UHGV virus genome: UHGV-1533542
Strand: one strand, 5' to 3'
Origin: a virus
Length of the DNA stretch: 30,878 bases
Made by a program: the position numbers and the translations under genes. The notes beneath the pieces were generated by a model, which saw nothing but the letters and a program-made list of their open reading frames with translations, was not told the DNA's origin and ran no database searches. Position 1 is the stretch's first letter; every line of letters begins with the position of its first letter. Below are positions 2,146-26,807 of the stretch, piece by piece.

Positions 2146-2628
2146 CTATCTTGTCAGGGTGTCATACTGTTTTTCGCAGACTCTTCCGGCTTCGGCTGCC
2201 CGGTCAGCATACTCTGCCAGTTGTCTGTTTCTCTCGAGAGATTTGCTGAGCACGTCGGCAAGCAAAACTCCGGTGTCTGCGGCTGACGTCCCAGCGCCGA
2301 CAATGGCGTTATACTGCCTGAGCTGCTCACGGATGGCAAAGAGTTGTTGCTGCAACCTGCCAGCGCGAGCGGCAGCATCAAGAGCATCATTGCGCGCCTG
2401 GTCGATTCTTTGCTGCGCTTCACGTTCATTGGTCACTTTCTCCTGTTCGTAGTACTGACGAACTTTGTCTTCTTCGTCTTTGCGGTCTTCTTCCGCCTGC
2501 GCATACCCGGCATCGTACTGGCGACTACCGTGTATATTCCAGGCAACCACTCCGACGATGAACAGAGCAGCAAGCATCACCACGATAACCAGTTGTTTCC
2601 AATATGCTTTTACGAATGCCCAGATCAT
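2146..2628 (-). CDS. Rz-like i-spanin
   Basis: ATG overlaps endolysin stop (ATGA); N-terminal TM helix ([18 protein letters not shown]) then charged coiled-coil domain; contains an embedded out-of-frame lipoprotein ORF; last gene of lysis cassette. Confidence 0.8.
2154..2390 (-). CDS. Rz1-like o-spanin (lipoprotein) embedded in Rz in another frame
   Basis: ATG at 2390 inside Rz; signal peptide with lipobox LAGC ([13 protein letters not shown]); short Pro-rich mature part; embedded arrangement as in lambda Rz/Rz1. Confidence 0.65.
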   Translation of the reverse strand: MMLLMLPLALAGCSNNSLPSVSSSGSITPLSALGRQPQTPEFCLPTCSANLSRETDNWQSMLTGQPKPEESAKNSMTP

Positions 2629-3254
2629 ATAGCCAGCACCTTACTGGCAGTGACGTACCGCGCGCGCCGGTCGTCGATGCCGTTCCGGCCACCATTGATA
2701 ATCAGAGTTACACGTACAATATCTCCGGTATACTTCATGCAGCCTTTGCTGGAGAAGAACCAGGCCGCGCTACGAGCCGCGTATTCGTCCTGTGCCAGCA
2801 GTTCAGGATTCTCCAGCAGGTCCACTTTCAGGCCGTTTCCGCAATCACGATAGTTATTCAAACCGGTAATCTGGATAAGTCCGCGGCCACGGTAATTCCA
2901 GCCATCGCCGGGGGCATTGTTCCCCATGCGTTTGCTGTACACCAGATTGGCAATCGCTCGCTGGCGCTCGAGTGGCAATGGTGGTTCACCAGCATGGCGA
3001 CCCAGTGCATTAGCCTGCCCCTGAGTGAGACGCCCAGCCCGAACGAAGTTAGCCAGTCCGCTGACACTGTAGTTGAAATTCTCCTGCAACCTGGTGAAGC
3101 CCCCAGACTCATGCCCGACTTGGGCAATAAACATTGCCTGATCTTCTGCTTTGCTGATACCAAACTCTTTCATCGCAGAAGTTATATGCGAGAACCAGCG
3201 TGCGGCCAGCGCCTCGCTAATACCAGCAGCTCGCTGGAATTGTTTAATCTCCAT
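2625..3254 (-). CDS. endolysin, glycoside hydrolase family 19 (chitinase-like lysozyme)
   Basis: Start at internal ATG 3254 (MEIKQF...), not the longer ORF from 3485; motifs [35 protein letters not shown] typical of GH19 phage endolysins (from memory); sits between holin-like genes and Rz. Confidence 0.88.
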
Positions 3255-3552
3255 GTTTAGACCTCGATATTTTGAAAATCTGAACAACGTTACCGCGTGT
3301 TTTAATAACCGCGGCAAGCATGACAGCGTTGATAATGACCTCAGATAAATCCACAGCCATTGGCGTGCGTAACCAGATTGCATAGACGACACGAACAGGA
3401 ATACTGGCCGCAGCAACAATAAGGAAATAAGCAAGCCACCCTCCCCATCTTCGATGTTGAGAGCCGTTACGCCGGAATGTGACAACGCGAATTGCTATGC
3501 CAGTACAAATAACTGCATTGGTGATAAGCAAAAAAAACTCATGCGTTACCAT
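3244..3552 (-). CDS. holin/antiholin-like small membrane protein
   Basis: 102-aa ORF with 2-3 hydrophobic helices, directly upstream of and overlapping the endolysin start; function assigned by position only. Confidence 0.5.
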
Positions 3553-3952
3553 CGTCTTTTCTCCCCGGAATTAAATCGCGTGGATTGTCTGAACGGTGGT
3601 AGAGCCATATACCAATACGCACAGCGACAATTGCTGACACGAATGCGCCAGCAGAGAAAACAATCCCTTTTTCAAAAGAGTCCTGCGTGATGGTAGGGAT
3701 CAGGCTGGCTATGCCGATAAGAATTGATGCTGCTGGTTTGTAGAAAAGAAGTCCACAGAGAAAGCTAAGCATCGATAAGAGTACGCGACGATGAATTGGG
3801 TACTCTACCGCAGAGGTAACAAAAATTACCGCACCAGCAAGAGCACCGAGCGCCACCTCTGGCGGAACGCCTACGATAACTGCAGCAAGAGAGCTCACAC
3901 TAAGCCATTGATTTAAAGAATCAGTAGTTAGATGGGCTGACATAATGAACAC
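3539..3952 (-). CDS. holin-like membrane protein (class I-like)
   Basis: 137 aa, about 3 TM helices and charged C-terminus ([19 protein letters not shown]); first gene of lysis cassette; start ambiguous (GTG 3952 or ATG 3943; a TAAGGAG lies about 20-29 nt upstream). Confidence 0.5.
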   Translation of the reverse strand: MFIMSAHLTTDSLNQWLSVSSLAAVIVGVPPEVALGALAGAVIFVTSAVEYPIHRRVLLSMLSFLCGLLFYKPAASILIGIASLIPTITQDSFEKGIVFSAGAFVSAIVAVRIGIWLYHRSDNPRDLIPGRKDDGNA

Positions 3953-4172
3953 CGTTTATTACGCATAACAATCTCCTTACTATTGAAGATTCACACATAA
4001 TAAACCATTTAAGGATAATAGTTACCTCAAAACGCTGTATTTCTACCTTCTACGGCAATGAAAATTTCGTTCAGAAAATGGTCTAGTGTACCTCTCAGTC
4101 ACAATTAAAGAAGAAAGAAGCCGAACTTACTTCGTAATAAGCAAGCCGGCTACTAAGATTAATCCTCAATAT

Positions 4173-6929
4173 TTAGCTACTTTCAAGCATTGCAAGACGT
4201 GATTCTATTTTTTCGATTCTTCTACGCAAATAAGCTGACTCAAGCCATAAACACTGGTCAGTACGGATACCCCACCTATTTCCAGCCTTGCAAACCAGAG
4301 TTCGCTCTTCTGTTTCGTATTCTTCTTCCATCTCAATTTCGACGCCATCCACAACTTTAGTGATCATCCTTACCGCCATCACTGGCGCGTATTTATCATC
4401 CCATTCATCGTAACAGAGAAGGCCAAATCTGGTTCCATCAATCCCATGCGCGAGGAAAGTGTCTCTCACTTGTTGTGCTATAACACCAAAATGCCAGCGG
4501 GCACCATCTCCCTTTTCCCTGACGGCATCAAGCCAGCGAAAAGCTACAATCCTGATATCTCCCCATGCATCCAGAATTGCATCACCTTCATAACCACGAG
4601 ACATATACAAGCTGAGCTCACTTGTACTAATCGGTTCACTTTTTTCTCTACCATCTGATGTGTTTATCGAACCGTTCGCAGAATAAACCTGTGCCCATCT
4701 AAATGATGGTGCACCAAGAGATTTGCTGTTATCAATAATTGGTGAAAAATTACCTTTAATGGCAATATTTCCAGAGTCGCCGAGTATATTAATAACTGCA
4801 GAGTCATCACCATGGTTTTTTACGCTTAAGTTTCTTGATGAAATATTTATATCTTTGTTATATCCACTAACATTAATCCATCTTTTACCATCAATGTGAT
4901 ACCCGTAAATATTTCCGTCTGATTGTTCGTCAGGTGACTCTCTAAGAACAATAGCATCTGCTCCAGACGACCATTGTATTTTTGTATCTGTAGGCCTCCA
5001 GTTCTTTATAATGAACGAACCATCAGTAAACTCCGTTTTTATTTGTCTATTGTCTACAAATGCGTCTCTTGGTTTAAACTCACTTGTGTTAACGCTGCTC
5101 TGAAGATCAGAAGCAAAAAATCTAAGATTTCCTGTATAACCCTGAGTCTCGGTCTTGTTATACGCAATCATAATTCCATTTTCAAACTCAGATGATGTTA
5201 TTTTAACATCACGGCAATCACCAAAAATGCAATTTCCTTTATCAAATGTTGTTTGAGCTTTGAATTTATCAAACCTTAAATTACGAACAGGGAAACCATC
5301 AACCTCTAATGCAAAGGATGCAGGAAGGCCAAAGTATTCTGATGGCTTACCTGATGTATGATCAAGAGTAGTGGCTACTGTATTCTCAAAAACAGTCCCG
5401 CTAAAATTATTACCAATTGACGGAAACCTGATTACACTTATTGTACCTTGTATTTCAGGAGAAATACCAGATAGTGTGATGTTAGCTCCATCAAATGATG
5501 CATCTGAATACGTATATACTGATTCACTGCCAGCAATTTTAAACTGTTTAACTGAAGTTATTCTCATCGACTTTTTATGTTTAAATGTCACTGAGCTTTC
5601 AGTATTACTTACAAGATCAATCTGAGGGCTATTCCTTATCGCGATCCCTGACTGGACATAAACGTTATTAAAGTGCGTTTTTTCAGGATTTCCCTTCATT
5701 GAAAGGCTCCCGTCATTTTCTGTCAGTAGTAGTCCTTTTACCCTCCAATAGCCGACAATCTGTACGTTATCAATAACTGAATCACAGCTATCGTATACAT
5801 GCAACCCTATATCCCAGTTATCACCCAATGAATAAGAATCAGGGTTATTGTATCCTTCAATACCATTTTTACTTACCATTATTCTCAGATTGCGTAACTG
5901 TGATGCCCTGTTGATACTAACAGCTACGCTCATGGCTTTTGGTGTAGCAGGAGTAACACCTACAGAATCTTCATTTGTAAACTCAGTGAACTTACAAGAT
6001 ATCCCTTCAACAATTTTAACTGGTCTTTCATTAGAGATGTTAAAAAAATATTTGTTTTTTTCTCCATCACCAGTAAATACAAGATGGGTTCCTTTACTCC
6101 AACTTTTTAATAATCTTTCAGGCGCTGGTCTATATGTATCCCAGTAATCAATTCCATCACCAATTAATGAAACTCCAGGAGGCACATCTATATTCTTAGA
6201 AATCATCCATTTACCTGCAGGTATTCTAACGACACTTGCACCAGAATTTATCGCATTAATTAACCATTCAGACGCATCAACTTCAAAATTTAATGCAGCA
6301 TATCTTTGCTCAAACGGAACAAAATCAAGAGCGTTAACGTTATCCCGCATCTTATCCTGGAACGTTCGGTATACTGCTCCAGAACCATACTGAATAAACC
6401 AACCAAAACCACCAATAACTCCGGCGATTGCAGCATCGACATAATTACGCATTGAGCGATTATTTACAGCGTCCTGCTCAAGTGATGGATCAGCAAGGTT
6501 AGATATTCTGTTTTGCTTTGCATCGTAATATTTTGCAAGCAAAGATGGTTTCATCAATGCACGTCTGAACCACCCAAAACATTGCTGGATCAGCATCGTC
6601 AGGTAGTCAAAAGCATCTTCATGCACTTCGGGGAAAAATTTACCCTGATTGCGAAGGTCTGTCTCCTGCACTACATCAAGCACACGATCTATCGTAATTC
6701 GCCATCCAGCAGCAAGCGGAGACGGAAGAACAACAGAACCGCCACTATAAGTGCCCGCCCCAGTTACCGTATAACCGGTATCCAGAACCAATTCTGTTAC
6801 GTTCCCGTTCAGGTCAGACACCTGAACAACCAGGTCGGATTTTTTGAAAATACGGAAGGTATACGGAAATGATGTCGTAGCGCCGTTACCAGTGTATTCG
6901 TTGTGGTCAACTTCGGTTGAGACCGTCAT
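4173..6929 (-). CDS. tailspike / tail fibre with depolymerase-type body and C-terminal intramolecular chaperone (peptidase S74-like) domain
   Basis: 918-aa ORF with SD GGAGA 6 nt before ATG; C-terminal ~160 aa match, from memory, the endosialidase auto-chaperone domain (S-D-G-R-E-K cleavage motif, DAWGD, HFGVIAQQVRD, C-terminal RRRIEKIESRLAMLE); central Asn/Ser/Gly-rich repeats consistent with a beta-helix. Confidence 0.88.
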   Translation of the reverse strand: MTVSTEVDHNEYTGNGATTSFPYTFRIFKKSDLVVQVSDLNGNVTELVLDTGYTVTGAGTYSGGSVVLPSPLAAGWRITIDRVLDVVQETDLRNQGKFFPEVHEDAFDYLTMLIQQCFGWFRRALMKPSLLAKYYDAKQNRISNLADPSLEQDAVNNRSMRNYVDAAIAGVIGGFGWFIQYGSGAVYRTFQDKMRDNVNALDFVPFEQRYAALNFEVDASEWLINAINSGASVVRIPAGKWMISKNIDVPPGVSLIGDGIDYWDTYRPAPERLLKSWSKGTHLVFTGDGEKNKYFFNISNERPVKIVEGISCKFTEFTNEDSVGVTPATPKAMSVAVSINRASQLRNLRIMVSKNGIEGYNNPDSYSLGDNWDIGLHVYDSCDSVIDNVQIVGYWRVKGLLLTENDGSLSMKGNPEKTHFNNVYVQSGIAIRNSPQIDLVSNTESSVTFKHKKSMRITSVKQFKIAGSESVYTYSDASFDGANITLSGISPEIQGTISVIRFPSIGNNFSGTVFENTVATTLDHTSGKPSEYFGLPASFALEVDGFPVRNLRFDKFKAQTTFDKGNCIFGDCRDVKITSSEFENGIMIAYNKTETQGYTGNLRFFASDLQSSVNTSEFKPRDAFVDNRQIKTEFTDGSFIIKNWRPTDTKIQWSSGADAIVLRESPDEQSDGNIYGYHIDGKRWINVSGYNKDINISSRNLSVKNHGDDSAVINILGDSGNIAIKGNFSPIIDNSKSLGAPSFRWAQVYSANGSINTSDGREKSEPISTSELSLYMSRGYEGDAILDAWGDIRIVAFRWLDAVREKGDGARWHFGVIAQQVRDTFLAHGIDGTRFGLLCYDEWDDKYAPVMAVRMITKVVDGVEIEMEEEYETEERTLVCKAGNRWGIRTDQCLWLESAYLRRRIEKIESRLAMLESS

Positions 6930-7033
6930 GTTAAATCTCCAGATAGTCGCAGCACCCGTTGCGCCGCATATCTGGTTATTCTATTACCTGAAAAACCATA
7001 TATGGATAGATAACCCATAAATACGAAAAGATA

Positions 7034-7048
7034 TTACCTTTCAGGTGA
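7034..7048. promoter_or_regulatory. ATTACC-N5-GGTAAT-type dyad, copy a (TTACC-TTTCA-GGTGA; one mismatch)
   Basis: Inverted repeat in the divergent intergenic region between tailspike start (6929) and the 85-aa gene; a partial copy (TTACCTGAAA) at about 6984. Confidence 0.5.
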
Positions 7049-7085
7049 TTTGCAAAACGTGCTGGATAGCAAACAAATTATTTGA

Positions 7086-7105
7086 TACTGTATATTTATA
7101 CAGTT
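7086..7105. promoter_or_regulatory. LexA (SOS) box
   Basis: TACTGTATATTTATACAGTT: CTGT-N8-ACAG with AT-rich spacer, 18/20 identical to E. coli consensus TACTGTATATATATACAGTA; 20 bp upstream of ATG 7125. Confidence 0.75.
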
Positions 7106-7124
7106 ATTGCATGGAGAAGATAAG

Positions 7125-7382
7125 ATGCAGCAGTATCACTATCCACTGGAAGACGGATTTACCGAAAGGATTCACACGCCGGGAGGCGTCAGGTCACTGG
7201 TGGAGGGATCGCACTTGATGAAATTACTCCGGGATCTCGATAAGGATGGATTTAATGTCGATGGCCCACTTGCCGAACTGACTGCACTGATTAACTACGT
7301 CACCAGCTCACAGATGTCTATGCAGGATCTGCAAACACATCTCGACTATTGTGCCGAACAATTACGAAAACAAACCCGGTAA
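7125..7382 (+). CDS. 85-aa protein preceded by a LexA box; paralogous to C-terminal domain of the Bro-N protein (antirepressor candidate)
   Basis: ATG with SD GGAGAAG; ORF opens at TTG 7107 but ATG 7125 preferred; by-eye alignment with residues ~148-228 of the 8528-9214 protein (HLMKLLRDLDKDGFNVDGPLAELT...DLQTHLDY vs LLMNLLNQLQEDGHDVSGAAAELT...DIQTHAEY). Confidence 0.65.
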   Translation: MQQYHYPLEDGFTERIHTPGGVRSLVEGSHLMKLLRDLDKDGFNVDGPLAELTALINYVTSSQMSMQDLQTHLDYCAEQLRKQTR

Positions 7383-7389
7383 ATTTAAA

Positions 7390-7405
7390 GGCCGCAAGAG
7401 CGGCC
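7390..7405. terminator. bidirectional hairpin terminator between convergent genes
   Basis: GGCCGC-AAGA-GCGGCC stem-loop with A/T-rich flanks, between the stop at 7382 (+) and the stop at 7405 (-). Confidence 0.5.
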
Positions 7406-8133
7406 TATCGTTTCGCTTTGTGCTCATCCCAGCACGTTTTGCACCATGCCATTAAGCCGTCCGCATTTTGATTATTAGGGTAAAAGCTGGTTCGTTTTCT
7501 GCGGACATTACAAATTGGGCACCACTTCATATGGCGTGTATTCTTTGGGCCATCGAGACACCTTGCACACCACTTAGTCAATCCATCTGGATTTTTTGAC
7601 GATTTCCTGAATTTTTCATATGGAAGGTTTATTCTGCATCGCAAGCACTGCTTGCTACCACTTGAAACTCTGTTAGCTGATTCTTCTTTTGGCGGCGATG
7701 CAGAAGGTATTCTTGCTGGCTCTGATACTGCCTGAGGTGCTTTTTTAGATGACTGAGACGATATGTCATCACCAGGGAATCTTCCATGATATGCCGGACG
7801 CGTTGACACTCCAGGTGGAAGCTCAGCTGTAAACGGCTTTGGCTGAATCAGTTGCCTCTCTTTTGCTAACTCCTGCTGTTTATAATATGTCTGGATTACC
7901 GCACTATCATAAGCAGGAGGTGCGGAAATATTAGGCGCATTACCTCCAGTTTTTTGAAACTGAGTAGAGGTGTGTTCTATCACCTGTGTACGATTAATCG
8001 TTATCTCCCCATCTTCGGTCTTTATCGTTTTGTTATGATTAACGACCGTACGATCAGAGATCTTAGTCTTGTTCTGGTTGATAACGTAAATAATCACCGC
8101 AACCACACCAACAACTATCCAGAAAACTTCCAT
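7405..8133 (-). CDS. membrane-anchored protein with C-terminal tandem zinc ribbons, function unknown
   Basis: SD GAGGA 6 nt before ATG; N-terminal TM helix (VFWIVVGVVAVIIYVI); Pro/Ser-rich linker; C-terminal Cys cluster CLRC...WCARC...WCPIC...WCKTC (two CxxC-N~20-CxxC units). Confidence 0.7.
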   Translation of the reverse strand: MEVFWIVVGVVAVIIYVINQNKTKISDRTVVNHNKTIKTEDGEITINRTQVIEHTSTQFQKTGGNAPNISAPPAYDSAVIQTYYKQQELAKERQLIQPKPFTAELPPGVSTRPAYHGRFPGDDISSQSSKKAPQAVSEPARIPSASPPKEESANRVSSGSKQCLRCRINLPYEKFRKSSKNPDGLTKWCARCLDGPKNTRHMKWCPICNVRRKRTSFYPNNQNADGLMAWCKTCWDEHKAKR

Positions 8134-8261: not shown

Positions 8262-8527
8262 ATTTACATCGCACTCCTCTTGTGCCATAGTAATCGGGCA
8301 CTGGATTTTGCCAGTGCCGGGATTGGCGTCCCGGGTTACTACAGAGGCACATATGCCGCATAAGCGGTTTTTTTATGTGTAAAGCGCACCTATTCTATGG
8401 TGGGCTGTGTGGGGGCACCGAAAGGTGCGCCGGGTCCTTTGTAGCCGGTTACGCCAACCCTGCACAGTTCACCACCAACCGATTGGCGTCGGTAGTGGTG
8501 ATTAACCTAACTACAAAGGTGATCACT

Positions 8528-9214
8528 ATGACTGCTAACGTAACCCCATCTGTTTTTCATTTTGAATCAGAGGCAACCATTCGAGCCATTGTTATTGATG
8601 GAAATCCTTGGTTTGTTGCCAAAGACGTTATTAAAGCTCTTCAACTGACAAACCCCACTATGTCAATAAAATCTCTTGATGATGATGAAAGGGCTAAATT
8701 TAACTTAGGCCGTCAAGGCGAAACCAATATTATCAACGAGTCAGGCCTCTACACACTGATCCTCCGCTGCCGCGATGCGGTGACACCAGGCACTATCCCC
8801 TACCGCTTTCGTAAATGGGTTACAGGTGAGGTTCTTCCTCAGATCCGCCGCACCGGAAGTTACATTAAAAACTCGCTCCCGCAGGAAGAACGCATAAAGA
8901 TGGTTGCCGACCAGGTAGCCAACGCCACGGCGTCAGCAGTAATGCAGGCGATGAAGATAGAGAACAAAACCTACAGTGCCCCGCTGAAGCCCGGCTACCG
9001 CAGCCTGATTCACTCGCCGTCTGGTGTTCTCGGCCTGACGGAGAACTCACTGCTGATGAATCTGCTGAACCAGTTACAGGAAGACGGGCACGACGTATCG
9101 GGCGCGGCGGCAGAGCTGACCACCATGTTCTGCTACATCGTCGGTGTGAGCAAATGCCTGCGTGATATCCAGACGCACGCGGAGTACATCAACGACAAAG
9201 CAGGATTCTTCTGA
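8528..9214 (+). CDS. Bro-N domain protein (phage antirepressor-like) with C-terminal domain paralogous to the 85-aa protein
   Basis: ATG 8528 with SD AAGGTG chosen over the RBS-less ATG 8375; N-terminal Bro-N signature (FHFESEATIRAIVIDGNPWFVAKDVIKALQL); hairpin with weak T-tract after stop. Confidence 0.85.
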   Translation: MTANVTPSVFHFESEATIRAIVIDGNPWFVAKDVIKALQLTNPTMSIKSLDDDERAKFNLGRQGETNIINESGLYTLILRCRDAVTPGTIPYRFRKWVTGEVLPQIRRTGSYIKNSLPQEERIKMVADQVANATASAVMQAMKIENKTYSAPLKPGYRSLIHSPSGVLGLTENSLLMNLLNQLQEDGHDVSGAAAELTTMFCYIVGVSKCLRDIQTHAEYINDKAGFF

Positions 9215-9223
9215 CAGAACGGC

Positions 9224-9247
9224 GGCACATGGATGTGCCTTTAAATA
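9224..9247 (+). terminator. possible intrinsic terminator after the Bro-N gene
   Basis: GGCACA-TGGA-TGTGCC hairpin followed by TTTAAATAATT; T-tract is weak. Confidence 0.35.
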
Positions 9248-9287
9248 ATTCTGTACAGATTGCAGACTGTTGGTGAATAGCGTACTA

Positions 9288-9302
9288 TTACCTCAAGGGT
9301 AA
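9288..9302. promoter_or_regulatory. ATTACC-N5-GGTAAT dyad, copy d (TTACC-TCAAG-GGTAA)
   Basis: Perfect TTACC-N5-GGTAA about 60 bp upstream of the small ORF / toxin-like gene pair. Confidence 0.5.
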
Positions 9303-9362
9303 ACGGATTGGTTTCATTTTTATTAATCCGTGTAATGAACTTATGAGATATGAGGTAATGTC

Positions 9363-9542
9363 ATGCGAAACGAAAAATTGCAGATGCGTAGAGCGCAAGC
9401 TGCCGCAAGACGTTCTTTCAATGGAAGCGTAGAGTGCGTAAAAGTTACTATGACAAAAGATCACGCAAGTCGCGTATCCCGCGCTTTCTTTGATTCTCGT
9501 AACAATAAGGAAAATTATGAGTTCGTCTGCGTCGCAGAATGA
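9363..9542 (+). CDS. small ORF (59 aa) upstream of and overlapping the toxin-like gene; antitoxin candidate
   Basis: ATG 9363 preceded by SD GAGG (gaggtaatgtcATG); basic 59-aa product; overlaps next gene start by 26 nt in another frame; below the ORF-track size cutoff; coding status unproven. Confidence 0.3.
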   Translation: MRNEKLQMRRAQAAARRSFNGSVECVKVTMTKDHASRVSRAFFDSRNNKENYEFVCVAE

Positions 9543-10062
9543 TAAAAATCAAATTGTCAGATATAAGGGTCGAGTATTGCATACGCAAAATTTCTCGGCC
9601 CTTTGTGCATCTGATCTTGAGCTGAAGAAAGTATCTGATGCCTTTACCCAGTATTGGAAAACGGGATACCATCCATCTCTTGGTAAAGATGCTGCATTTG
9701 CTCGTCCGACAGAAATGCTTAAACTAAATGTCAGGCATACTCATGTCGATAACCAAGACTATATTCCAGAAGATAGTGATAAAAAACACACTGGTAAAAA
9801 ATCATCTTGGGATGCATGGAAAAATATAGCGTCTGTGCAAGTAAAATGCATACCAACAAGTGATTGCTTTTTAGTTTATTCGGTAAATCACAATCGTGAT
9901 GCGCTGGTTATGTTTTTTGTTGACGCAGATGCCCACAACATAACTGAGCAAGAAGAGTTTAAAGAGGCAGCAATCACTATCAGTTATCAATTCTTTGAGA
10001 AAACAAAAACAGAACCAATGCCTTTAGAAGAAGATCTTTTTTCTGATAAATGGAAGGAATAA
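9517..10062 (+). CDS. 181-aa protein with YafO-like toxin features (candidate mRNA-interferase-type toxin)
   Basis: ATG 9517 with SD AAGGA (ORF opens at TTG 9490); by-eye similarity to my recollection of E. coli YafO (F.QY.K.G..P..GKDA, L.V.HTHV, F/HLVY...AL....D..H); strong terminator follows. Confidence 0.6.
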   Translation: MSSSASQNDKNQIVRYKGRVLHTQNFSALCASDLELKKVSDAFTQYWKTGYHPSLGKDAAFARPTEMLKLNVRHTHVDNQDYIPEDSDKKHTGKKSSWDAWKNIASVQVKCIPTSDCFLVYSVNHNRDALVMFFVDADAHNITEQEEFKEAAITISYQFFEKTKTEPMPLEEDLFSDKWKE

Positions 10063-10086
10063 GCCCGCGTTGCGGGCTTTTTTGTG
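10063..10086 (+). terminator. intrinsic terminator of the plus-strand accessory unit
   Basis: Directly after stop 10062: stem GCCCGC/GCGGGC, 3-nt loop, then TTTTTTGTG. Confidence 0.8.
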
Positions 10087-10120
10087 TCTGCGGATTCCCG
10101 CCCGGGCGGCGGTGGCATTC

Positions 10121-10148
10121 GTTAAAAACAAGGCCGCGAAAGCGGCCT
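10121..10148 (-). terminator. intrinsic terminator ending the long minus-strand virion operon
   Basis: Stem AGGCCGC/GCGGCCT with GAAA loop; on the minus strand it is followed by TTTTT; lies just downstream of the 46-aa ORF stop and abuts palindrome 10149-10160. Confidence 0.6.
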
Positions 10149-10160
10149 GTGACATGTCAC
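10149..10160. repeat. perfect 12-bp palindrome GTGACATGTCAC, copy i
   Basis: Exact palindrome between the stop of the 46-aa ORF and the minus-strand terminator; identical copies at 27433-27444 and 29698-29709. Confidence 0.8.
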
Positions 10161-10167
10161 GCTCACG

Positions 10168-10308
10168 TTATGACAAGCCTATGTACCCTGCTACACCAGA
10201 TAATATCAAAATAACTGCAACAGCAAATTCGCCATCGTCAATGATACATTTACGGTTCATAACGCCAAGTGCAACAAGCGCAAACACAACAAGAATAAAA
10301 GCAATCAT
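10168..10308 (-). CDS. 46-aa two-helix membrane micropeptide, last gene of the virion operon
   Basis: ATG 9 nt after the stop of the 824-aa gene with SD AAGGA; product MIAFILVVFALVALGVMNRKCIIDDGEFAVAVILILSGVAGYIGLS has two hydrophobic segments; not in the ORF track (below size cutoff). Confidence 0.45.
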   Translation of the reverse strand: MIAFILVVFALVALGVMNRKCIIDDGEFAVAVILILSGVAGYIGLS

Positions 10309-10317
10309 TTCTCATCC

Positions 10318-12792
10318 TTATTGCGGAGTGACATCCTGTGGTCGCCACCAGTATGTCTGGTTAAACTCTTTCTTCGAACGTTGCTCCATTTTACGCAAAT
10401 AGCCTGGTGAAAAATACTCCTGCATCTGGTTAAAGATCATGTGATCGAGAGCCGCCTTTAAGTACCAGAGATTCGCACCTGGCATCAAACCTTTCCCCAG
10501 CTTCACCAGATCACCACCAGTCTGCTCACTCTTCCCTTCCACAGCATTTAACGGTATGCCCTGAGCAATCTTCACTACGTCATCAACCAGACCAGCTACC
10601 GGGCCAAGCATCGACGCCAGCGCGCCGCTTCCGTACCTAGTGTGATCTGACAATAAAAAGTCACCGTAAAGGCCAAGACCACCACCTTTCAGTAGAGCAC
10701 CAAGCCAAAATTTAGCAGCATCTTCTCCTGTCATCTCGCGAGGATTACGACCAGACGCAAGGTCGTTAAGTTGCTGCGACAAAGCGCCAAGAATGGTCGT
10801 ACTGGCAATAAACGTCGCAATATATGCCGCACGCCCACCAGCAGACGGCATACCCATAGCGCGTGACCAGTGACGCATAACTACCGAGATAGGGAACGAT
10901 TTAAACAGGAAAACACTTCTCGTTAATTCACCTTTCCATGTTCCACGCTGAATACCAGAACCGGTTATCAGTTGCTCACGTGCTCCCGGTGTAATAACAG
11001 CCATATCAACTTCTTCAGTTACGGCACCGAGAAGTTTACGCATTGCCTCAAATTTCACGCGTTCAGGCTCACCAAGATGTTTAACTGCTGAATCAGGGAT
11101 ACGCATAATGCTTTCCGGTGTCAGCATCGTATTATTGCCGTTCCCCCAGTCCTCCTGTTGCGCCAGCTTCCATACGCTCCAGTCTGTTTCAGTAATCCCT
11201 TTGCTTTTCAGGATACGAAAATCAGAGTCATCGAGGCTACGAAGGTCTGGTGTCCGTGACACTACCTCTCCCAGGCTTCCCATCATTGTTACGCCATAGG
11301 CGCGCTTGTGCGCATCTGACCATGCTGTAAGCCCACTGGCACGCATTACCGCCGTTGCCGCCCAACGAGACACAGACGGCCCCATATTATCCATTGCCCA
11401 GCGGTTAACACTGCCAAGTAGAGATTCCATCGCCAGACCAGCGCGGCGCGCCCGCGCAAGCTCAGTACGGTTCGTTGGGTCCATAGCTTCAAGCTGGTTG
11501 CGGAATAACTGGTTCATTGGAAGGTTGGTCACCTTCGCAGACAGATACATGGTTCCAAGATCAGAGAACGATGACAGCAACGCGGATCCTAGTCGGCTGG
11601 CAACCAGCCAGTTGCGGATATTGTCAGACCAGCGCGCGATGTGCGGATTCGCTACAGGCTGTGTCTTTCCGGAAATAAAGTTGTACAGATTCTCTGTGTT
11701 GTTCGCCAGCCGCTCGACTTTACCGGTTTTACTCGGGTTAGCTGTTGCCGTTTCTGCCTTCACCTGATCAAGAAGAGAGCGGAAAACATGATCGGGGTTT
11801 GGGCCATATGTTTCCACCAGTGCAATATCTTTACTGATACCTTCCAGGTGACCGACCATGATTTCCCATAGAGAGCGATCGCCATAAAGTTGCTGATATT
11901 GCAGATAGGAATCTGCATCTTTGAAATGTATCTGTCGTGATGCATTACCCCGGTTAGCACGTGCGCCGGAAATTCGCATTCCGGTATCAGTAAGCTTATT
12001 CAGCCCACCAGTAGCGATCGTGTTATAAGCCTCTCCAAGAAATGCAGACAACTCGGCATCGTTCATCAGTTGTCCATCGACTCGGGTATAATATTTGCGA
12101 TCCAGCTTACCTATAACATCGCTAACCCACTTATCCTTTGATACCGCCCCAACCTTTTCCATAGAATGATGTTGAGGGATCCCCCAGTTTTCGAGATAGC
12201 CAATGTCCCCACCAGCATCATTAAACCGGCGGCGCAGTAGCTCTGTCACTTCTCTCCACGCCTTAGCACCTTTTCTTGCTTTAGCATTGCCAGTATTTTG
12301 CCCTCGCATTTCATATACCAGGTCACGCACGCCAGCTTCATCTTCAAACAGGCCAAAAAAGCGAGGATCAACTGCTTCAAATGCCTCCTGCAATTGACTC
12401 AATGCATAATCACGAGTGGCTTTTGTTCTGGATTCAACAGAGAGGAAATTCGATTTACCGTCTGCATTAAAAGCAATAGTACGGTTAAGAGCGCCAAGTT
12501 TCCCATCAGCCCCTTGATAGCTATTGATAAATTTATCCAATCTCTGACGTGCGGCTATAGTGAGAGCCACACGACGTTTCTTTAATGCCGCTTCTCGCTG
12601 TAATTCTTCAGATGCCAATTGTGCTGCACGATACAACCGTTCTGATTCGGAAAGTTGTCGCCACGACATCGGATCATCACGAGCAATGGAGCGCATATTT
12701 CGATAAATGCGGTCTTCAATGTTCTGTATTTCTCGCGCCGTTAACGTGCGCTGCGCCGCCTGCTGGACCGCTTGTATACATTCCTGTCTCAT
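10318..12792 (-). CDS. large internal virion / ejection protein (824 aa)
   Basis: Long ORF in the virion operon; position equivalent to internal core/ejection proteins of podoviruses; function by position only. Confidence 0.75.
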   Translation of the reverse strand: MRQECIQAVQQAAQRTLTAREIQNIEDRIYRNMRSIARDDPMSWRQLSESERLYRAAQLASEELQREAALKKRRVALTIAARQRLDKFINSYQGADGKLGALNRTIAFNADGKSNFLSVESRTKATRDYALSQLQEAFEAVDPRFFGLFEDEAGVRDLVYEMRGQNTGNAKARKGAKAWREVTELLRRRFNDAGGDIGYLENWGIPQHHSMEKVGAVSKDKWVSDVIGKLDRKYYTRVDGQLMNDAELSAFLGEAYNTIATGGLNKLTDTGMRISGARANRGNASRQIHFKDADSYLQYQQLYGDRSLWEIMVGHLEGISKDIALVETYGPNPDHVFRSLLDQVKAETATANPSKTGKVERLANNTENLYNFISGKTQPVANPHIARWSDNIRNWLVASRLGSALLSSFSDLGTMYLSAKVTNLPMNQLFRNQLEAMDPTNRTELARARRAGLAMESLLGSVNRWAMDNMGPSVSRWAATAVMRASGLTAWSDAHKRAYGVTMMGSLGEVVSRTPDLRSLDDSDFRILKSKGITETDWSVWKLAQQEDWGNGNNTMLTPESIMRIPDSAVKHLGEPERVKFEAMRKLLGAVTEEVDMAVITPGAREQLITGSGIQRGTWKGELTRSVFLFKSFPISVVMRHWSRAMGMPSAGGRAAYIATFIASTTILGALSQQLNDLASGRNPREMTGEDAAKFWLGALLKGGGLGLYGDFLLSDHTRYGSGALASMLGPVAGLVDDVVKIAQGIPLNAVEGKSEQTGGDLVKLGKGLMPGANLWYLKAALDHMIFNQMQEYFSPGYLRKMEQRSKKEFNQTYWWRPQDVTPQ

Positions 12793-26730: not shown

Positions 26731-26807
26731 GTGGCATTAGCTCAGTTGGACAGAGCAACCGCCTTCTAAGCGGTTGGTCGCAGGTTCGAATCCTGCATGC
26801 CACGCCA
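26731..26807 (+). tRNA. tRNA-Arg (anticodon UCU), phage-encoded
   Basis: Cloverleaf read by eye: acceptor GTGGCAT/ATGCCAC, D-arm GCTC..GAGC, anticodon stem ACCGC/GCGGT with loop CTTCTAA (anticodon TCT), T-arm GCAGG-TTCGAAT-CCTGC, encoded CCA; body close to but distinct from E. coli argU as I recall it. Confidence 0.88.

Follow-up and report, generated by a model that had tools for sequence, protein, structure and literature searches.

The gene described here lies at one end of a prophage in virus genome UHGV-1533542, of which a 30,878-nucleotide (nt) stretch was analysed as a whole (referred to below as the window). All lines of evidence considered together, its product is very probably the sole receptor-binding tailspike of an Escherichia coli prophage of the Uetakevirus (epsilon15/phiV10-like) kind, assembled as a three-way mosaic of an N-terminal anchor, a central beta-helix and a C-terminal S74-type chaperone. 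The gene is an intact open reading frame (ORF) of 918 codons, running from ATG to stop at 6929..4173 on the minus strand, exactly where a preceding reading made from the DNA letters alone (the sequence-only reading) had placed it. Its precursor of 918 amino acids (aa) has a mass of 102.4 kDa and is spanned over its full length by PHROG 1171, "tail spike protein" (E = 6.5e-300). In RefSeq the same protein is named "tail fiber domain-containing protein". Thirteen complete E. coli genomes carry the gene at 98.7% nt identity or more, and the protein belongs to a cluster of 654 sequences sharing at least 90% identity. It is an ordinary, uncharacterised member of a well-known class, the Uetakevirus tailspikes with an S74 auto-chaperone, and its sequence is already in public databases.

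Results

The N-terminal anchor is that of the Uetakevirus genus

The first 203 residues form the anchor. Over aa 1–165 the protein is 95% identical to the tailspike of ZX5, 72% to gp20 of epsilon15 and 68% to gp25 of phiV10, and PHROGs 13893, 5662 and 1640 match aa 1–166 or 1–203. Among PDB entries, the N terminus of Dpo31/Dpo36 matches the anchor with E = 1e-31. At the nt level, homology to ZX5 and EC.W1-9 ends within the gene, at window positions 6342/6320. The extent agrees with the work of Pas et al. (2023), in which the first 205 aa of the phiV10 receptor-binding protein served as the query for the Uetakevirus anchor (PMC10408124). Conserved across the genus, this segment would dock the tailspike trimer onto the short tail.

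The C terminus is an S74-type chaperone with an intact Ser–Lys dyad

The sequence-only reading had assigned an endosialidase-type S74 auto-chaperone to the C terminus, and this assignment was borne out. Every motif that it quoted is found in the translation (NTSDGREKSEP, ILDAWGD, WHFGVIAQQVRD, LRRRIEKIESRLAMLESS and RRRIEKIESRLAMLESS). The Pfam profile check, which had been set beforehand, returned Peptidase_S74 (PF13884) at aa 758–829 with E = 3.1e-10 and 40.6 bits, above the gathering cut-off of 22 bits. A phmmer search of the PDB aligned aa 712–917 with the C-terminal intramolecular chaperone of endoNF (3GW6, E = 6.2e-34) and also returned GA-1 gp12 (3GUD, E = 1e-17) and the L-shaped tail fibre of T5 (4UW8, E = 2e-8). 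The same three entries were found by Foldseek with an AlphaFold model as the query, each with a probability of 1.00. Taken together, the matches to S74 chaperones are far beyond chance.

The AlphaFold2 model covers aa 200–918 as a monomer, was built from an alignment of 54 sequences and has a mean predicted local distance difference test (pLDDT) score of 88.3. Its chaperone part contains helices, a long beta-hairpin "tentacle" and a terminal helix at aa 890–917, as expected of the S74/C-terminal intramolecular chaperone domain fold. Low pLDDT values fall on the stalk, at model residues 541–556 (aa 740–755), and would be expected of a structure that forms only on trimerisation. A sub-threshold match to Pfam End_tail_spike also falls on the stalk, at aa 718–757.

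In the alignment with 3GW6, Ser758 corresponds to residue 911 (S911A in that crystal form), Lys763 to Lys916 and Arg744 to Arg897. Ser911 and Lys916 of endoNF make up the Ser–Lys catalytic dyad, and Arg897 is a stalk arginine needed for autocleavage (PMC8326128). Ser758 and Lys763 are each kept in 46 of the 54 aligned homologues. The present protein has a Ser–Lys dyad with five-residue spacing at the N-terminal border of the chaperone as well as the stalk arginine. By analogy with endoNF, three C-terminal domains would trimerise through their terminal helices, and the Ser758–Lys763 dyad, helped by Arg744, would then cut the chain after Ser758. The computed products of such a cut are a fragment of 18.5 kDa, which would be freed, and a mature chain of 83.9 kDa, three copies of which would remain in a kinetically stable trimer. 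The domain predicted to be released, aa 759–918, corresponds to window 4655–4176 and is essentially the segment of about 160 aa at 4176–4658 that had been proposed before.

An endosialidase proper (GH58) was considered as a candidate and rejected. Neither End_beta_propel nor End_beta_barrel of Pfam matched the tailspike protein at E ≤ 1, and in place of a propeller or barrel domain the central fold is a right-handed beta-helix. The endosialidase-like parts are limited to the stalk and the chaperone.

The central domain is a right-handed beta-helix

Structure comparison identified the central domain as a right-handed parallel beta-helix with the pectin-lyase fold typical of depolymerases, in agreement with the proposal of a depolymerase-type beta-helix of uncharacterised specificity. 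No catalytic family was matched by Pfam or NCBIfam, and NCBIfam gave no family at all. We suggest that this part of the protein, aa ~204–750, binds a polysaccharide on the host surface and probably cleaves it.

The three modules have different histories

The window from 10400 to 1950 was compared by blastn with the genomes of epsilon15, phiV10, ZX5 and EC.W1-9, and two conserved blocks were found. The first, 7405–6320, contains the homologue of epsilon15 gp19, a regulatory region and tailspike aa 1–203, and is 95–96.5% identical at the nt level to EC.W1-9 and ZX5. The second, 4026–2019, carries the lysis cassette and is 82–93% identical to all four phages. Only the stretch between them, 6320–4026, is replaced, which comprises tailspike aa 204–918 and about 150 bp downstream. 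Likewise, the lysis cassette adjoins unrelated tailspikes in dozens of phage records. Since the cassette and the anchor are conserved and only 6320–4026 is exchanged, receptor specificity and lysis do not form one module, and the unit of exchange is intragenic. The sequence-only reading had held that the two travel together as an exchangeable module, and this part of it failed: the cassette and the anchor are backbone, and the comparison for mosaic breakpoints that it called for placed the start of the swapped unit inside the tailspike gene.

The replaced stretch is itself composite. Its beta-helix (window 6263–4652) shares 96–99% nt identity with genes named "phage tailspike protein" in P22-like prophages. 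One of these, the P22-like (Lederbergvirus) tailspike WP_213666884.1 (824 aa) of strain NCCP12480, is nearly identical to the present protein over aa ~258–757 (99% nt), with the P22 head-binding N terminus (PF09008) in place of the epsilon15 anchor. It also ends in an S74-type domain, but one that is divergent and shorter, has a sub-threshold Pfam score of 21.4 and shows weak similarity beyond the TSD motif. Its gene adjoins intS/argW and has no lysis genes in its vicinity. The reverse combination is seen in strain AST215, whose P22-like tailspike has a chaperone with 80% aa identity over aa 722–917 and an unrelated beta-helix. When the whole gene was used as the query, homology to WP_213666884.1 ended at gene nt 2278 and homology to AST215 began at nt 2239 (aa 747); both junctions therefore fall within aa 747–759, where the final stalk turn meets the TSD cleavage motif.

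Judging from these alignments, the beta-helix and the chaperone have separate histories, recombine separately and are shared piecewise with P22-like tailspikes. The GC content agrees with the mosaic picture, at 45.5% in the anchor, 36.1% in the beta-helix, 45.2% in the chaperone and about 51% in the backbone. The anchor and the downstream lysis cassette represent the phage backbone, to which the low-GC beta-helix and the chaperone were added separately. Exchangeability of the chaperone domain is established for the S74 family. Exchange of receptor-binding domains between Uetake- and Lederbergviruses has already been described (Pas et al. 2023, PMC10408124).

Several points weigh against the reading of the gene as a self-processing, receptor-binding tailspike. 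The analysis itself establishes the fold, the identity of the domains, the retention of the catalytic residues and the borders of the mosaic; that the chain is cut, forms trimers and acts as an enzyme on a given receptor is inferred, both for this protein and for its beta-helix subtype. The trimeric stalk is modelled poorly because the AlphaFold model is a monomer. A tblastn search of 50,697 phage records found relatives of the beta-helix in 8, none of them characterised. The link between tailspike and serogroup that would be expected was not seen, as the hosts of the beta-helix are of types O6, O15, O25 and O83. Finally, the Prokaryotic Genome Annotation Pipeline (PGAP) flags the orthologue in NZ_CP122448.1 as a pseudogene of 2475 nt, "incomplete; missing C-terminus". 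Pseudogene status was rejected for this orthologue (9001–11757 of the piece examined), and the label is probably an annotation artefact, because the 918-codon frame is intact; it differs from that of the window only by K592Q and L716F.

One beta-helix subtype is found in hosts of at least four O serogroups

The core of the beta-helix (window 4660–6150) is present in 29 of 5,426 complete E. coli genomes, within a Uetakevirus gene in 13 of them and within a P22-like gene in 16. For seven hosts the O type was read from the PGAP family names (wzx/wzy) of the O-antigen cluster. Two are O6 (strains 85.0412 and ECONIH2), three are O15 (NCCP12480, O15_8X and M160133), one is O25 (isolate 30602_1#64, NZ_OZ040490) and one is O83. 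Tailspikes of Uetake- and Lederbergviruses are usually serogroup-specific, with one receptor-binding domain subtype for one O serogroup, and some multi-serogroup subtypes are suspected of targeting another receptor (PMC10408124). The pattern of one subtype for one serogroup, in the sense of Pas et al. (2023), does not hold for the present beta-helix among the seven hosts, and the subtype resembles their multi-serogroup group. Assignment of the receptor from the host O type was given up, as four different serogroups occur among seven hosts. Either a serogroup-independent receptor or O-antigen switching after lysogeny is possible.

It is plausible, if short of probable, that the protein is a classical O-antigen tailspike for one serogroup and that the spread of hosts arose by O-antigen switching of lysogens or by in-cell recombination between resident prophages. 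Such a tailspike would be the usual kind for both genera, and among the 16 hosts with the P22-like version no fewer than 3 are O15. In addition, four complete genomes (NZ_CP196906, NZ_OZ040490, NZ_CP019243 and NZ_CP121153) carry two copies of the beta-helix, which offers an opportunity for exchange between prophages within one cell. Set against this, the genes are nearly identical (at least 98.7% nt) in O6, O25, O15 and O83 hosts, and the Uetakevirus form is found in O6 and O25 hosts alike, where it lies each time some 480 kb upstream of the O-antigen cluster.

We tentatively put forward, as a possibility on the unlikely side, a two-part proposal: that the beta-helix recognises a serogroup-independent glycan, such as a capsule type or another polysaccharide common to O6, O15, O25 and O83, and that the region of the autocleavage site may act as a recombination joint at which beta-helix and chaperone are reassorted between both phage genera. 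If the glycan were of this kind, phages of both types, Uetakevirus and P22-like, could use a single receptor module to lysogenise several of the major E. coli lineages that cause extraintestinal disease.

The beta-helix probably acts as an enzyme

The beta-helix could instead be an adhesin-like domain that recognises the receptor by binding alone, without depolymerase activity. We consider this improbable. Most of its top structural neighbours are active depolymerases, and D373, E542, D574, E583, H524, R432 and R549 are invariant in the 54 homologues, down to 25% identity; four invariant carboxylates together with His524, Arg432 and Arg549 are more readily explained by an active site than by a binding surface that varies. 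The epsilon15 tailspike is an enzyme. More generally, the tailspikes of the genus that have been studied are enzymes (PMC10408124).

Tailspike and lysis genes are probably neighbours rather than one unit

A further explanation treats the tailspike and the lysis cassette as one transcription unit that moves between phages as a single specificity-plus-lysis module. The arrangement in the window lends it some appeal, as both lie on the same strand, 220 bp apart with no gene between them, and both are found at the prophage end, beyond the accessory island. However, the same cassette accompanies unrelated tailspike beta-helices in epsilon15, phiV10, ZX5 and EC.W1-9, the same beta-helix occurs beside intS in P22-like prophages with no lysis genes nearby, and genes on the opposite strand separate tailspike and holin in epsilon15 and phiV10. 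In addition, a hairpin at window 4151–4119 (folding energy −16.9 kcal/mol, z = −2.5), followed by the U-rich UCUUUCUUCUUUAAUU, starts 22 nt past the tailspike stop codon. This hairpin also forms when 237 nt are folded; it was missed by a simple terminator scan, its stem being bulged. In the epsilon15 record a rho-independent terminator is annotated at the equivalent place, right after gp20. Co-transcription of tailspike and holin is doubtful because of the terminator-like hairpin behind the stop codon, and the single-module explanation is very unlikely.

A scan for the sigma-70 consensus found fewer promoter-like sites than in shuffled sequence, none of them convincingly placed for the tailspike or the lysis genes. 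Late promoters of the Uetakevirus genus probably need a phage activator.

That the prophage is defective and the gene a decaying remnant without current function is scarcely credible: the PGAP label on the NZ_CP122448 orthologue speaks for it, but the frame is intact there and in the window, the virion operon and lysis cassette of the window consist of full-length ORFs, the catalytic residues of the tailspike are intact and its cluster holds 654 close relatives.

Genome context

At its left end the window consists of E. coli chromosomal sequence with yfgH and yfgI. Free Uetakevirus genomes are homologous only as far as 2018/2019, between Rz and yfgI, which marks the prophage/chromosome junction; the prophage sits at the yfgI side, and in the free phages the integrase gene comes next at this point. 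As the sequence-only reading had it, the tailspike has the same orientation as the holin, endolysin and spanin genes and is kept apart from the virion operon by the accessory island. The lysis genes encode two holins, a GH19 endolysin and the Rz/Rz1 spanins, and terminators add to the separation from the operon. The lysis genes were identified through Pfam Phage_holin_8, Phage_holin_3_7, Glyco_hydro_19 and DUF2514 and through holin, endolysin and Rz-like spanin PHROGs. Coordinates of all features are collected in Table 1.

Table 1 Features of the tailspike region (positions in the window)
Feature	Position	Strand	Evidence
Tailspike gene, 918 aa	4173..6929	-	Intact ORF, PHROG 1171
N-terminal tail-anchor module, aa 1–203	6321..6929	-	Identity to Uetakevirus tailspikes, GC 45.5%
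Receptor-binding module: short linker and right-handed parallel beta-helix, aa 204 to ~750	4680..6320	-	Low GC
Stalk before the cleavage site, aa 712–758, including R744	4656..4796	-	3GW6 alignment, End_tail_spike, low pLDDT
Putative autocleavage motif S758-D-G-R-E-K763	4641..4658	-	Alignment with 3GW6 S911/K916
Peptidase_S74 chaperone, aa 759–918, predicted release	4176..4655	-	Pfam, PDB, Foldseek, model
Terminator-like hairpin and U-rich tail	4103..4151	-	−16.9 kcal/mol
Empty "moron slot"	3953..4172	-	No ORF of at least 40 aa
Lysis cassette (backbone)	2146..3943	-	Pfam, PHROG, 82–93% nt identity to four phages
Holin	3943-3539	-	
Second holin	3552-3244	-	
GH19 endolysin	3254-2625	-	
Rz	2628-2146	-	
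Rz1, embedded in Rz	2429-2154	-	
Divergent regulatory region	6930..7124	.	LexA-box palindrome 7088–7103, operator-like palindrome 7033–7049
Divergent 85-aa gene (epsilon15 gp19 homologue)	7125..7382	+	phrog_450, E = 9e-48; homologues annotated in epsilon15, phiV10, ZX5, EC.W1-9
Terminator-like hairpin ending the upstream gene 8133-7405 (-)	7389..7406	-	7-bp stem with 6 GC pairs, T-rich tail

Between tailspike and holin, no ORF of 40 aa or more was found. The equivalent slot holds O-antigen polymerase/inhibitor or O-acetyltransferase genes on the opposite strand in epsilon15 and phiV10, and two small ORFs in EC.W1-9. At the start of the holin, a strong Shine–Dalgarno sequence (AAGGAG, 3978–3973) precedes an upstream ORF of 12 codons (ATG at 3966; window 3928–3978, minus strand), which overlaps the holin start (ATG at 3943, in-frame GTG at 3952) inside a large hairpin. 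In the epsilon15 record, the equivalent region is marked as an RNase III site. The small ORF and the hairpin may serve translational coupling or regulation of holin synthesis.

Upstream of the tailspike come, in order, a conserved regulatory region of 195 bp, the divergent 85-aa gene, a terminator, the accessory island and the end of the virion operon. The regulatory region has a mean column identity of 91% over five Uetakeviruses. Some 22 nt ahead of the gp19 homologue it contains a perfectly palindromic LexA box, CTGTATATTTATACAG, and this box is kept in epsilon15, phiV10, ZX5 and EC.W1-9; the window as a whole has 4 copies of CTGT-N8-ACAG, where 0.39 would be expected. The 85-aa protein has a weaker second match to the C terminus of an anti-repressor. 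This arrangement suggests that the gene encodes a putative small anti-repressor under SOS control and points away from the promoter region of the tailspike. A further palindrome, ATCACCTGAAAGGTAAT, is situated on the tailspike side of the LexA box, ahead of the tailspike start. Its counterpart in the epsilon15 record is labelled as a binding site for the phage repressor, so the divergent region may be controlled by the prophage repressor.

The accessory island encodes a zinc-ribbon protein of 242 aa and a BRO-N/Ant protein (8375–9214, plus strand) and also carries a YafO-family toxin-like gene (9490–10062, plus strand). The C-terminal end of the BRO-N/Ant protein is the phrog_450 domain that forms the entire 85-aa protein; two paralogous copies of an anti-repressor C-terminal module are therefore present. 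No antitoxin partner is annotated beside the YafO-like orthologue in NZ_CP122448, although no search aimed at one was made. The prophage also contains a tRNA-Arg gene (anticodon TCT; 26731–26807, plus strand), which runs opposite to the virion genes.

The order of virion operon, accessory genes, small divergent gene, tailspike, lysis cassette and attachment site is annotated identically in epsilon15, phiV10, ZX5 and EC.W1-9, and the present gene occupies the syntenic position, between the gp19 homologue and the holin/holin/GH19/Rz-Rz1 series that leads to the attachment site. Because of this shared order, the gene arrangement is the standard genome plan of the Uetakeviruses and is not peculiar to the present prophage.

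Discussion

Nothing in this gene challenges the current understanding of tailspikes or S74 chaperones. What makes it mildly interesting is the reassortment of three modules with junctions at the autocleavage site, together with a single beta-helix subtype that spans four host O serogroups. Its practical value is modest: it offers a clean natural case of a three-module tailspike composed of anchor, beta-helix and self-cleaving chaperone, and breakpoints resolved to a few codons may help in the design of chimeric tailspikes and retargeted tailocins. Identification of the receptor could yield a depolymerase that acts on an unusually wide range of clinical E. coli, or a new enzyme with capsule specificity, because the beta-helix occurs in prophages of O6, O15, O25 and O83 strains.

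The closest known systems include the tailspikes epsilon15 gp20, phiV10 gp25, the tail fibre of vB_EcoP_ZX5 and the "eliminase" of EC.W1-9, which share the anchor (68–95% aa identity). Their genes are likewise placed between a gp19 homologue and the lysis cassette and follow the same upstream regulatory region; their receptor-binding domains are unrelated to that of the present protein. Compared with epsilon15 and phiV10, the present prophage lacks a seroconversion gene in the usual slot after the tailspike. At the C terminus, BLASTP found no similarity between the present domain and epsilon15 gp20 or phiV10 gp25, and Pfam Peptidase_S74 was not found in the EC.W1-9 tailspike or in the epsilon15-type gp20 of VB_ST_E15; the ZX5 tailspike has an S74 domain, with 38% identity to the present one. 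The gp12 pre-neck appendage of Bacillus phages phi29 and GA-1 is about 12% identical in the beta-helix, and differs in its Gram-positive host, its teichoic-acid substrate and its attachment domain. The endosialidase endoNF of coliphage K1F (3GW6; MEROPS/Pfam Peptidase_S74) is alike over the C-terminal ~200 aa (E = 6e-34), and the likeness includes the stalk, the Ser–Lys dyad, the arginine pair Arg744/Arg897, the long beta-hairpin and the terminal helix.

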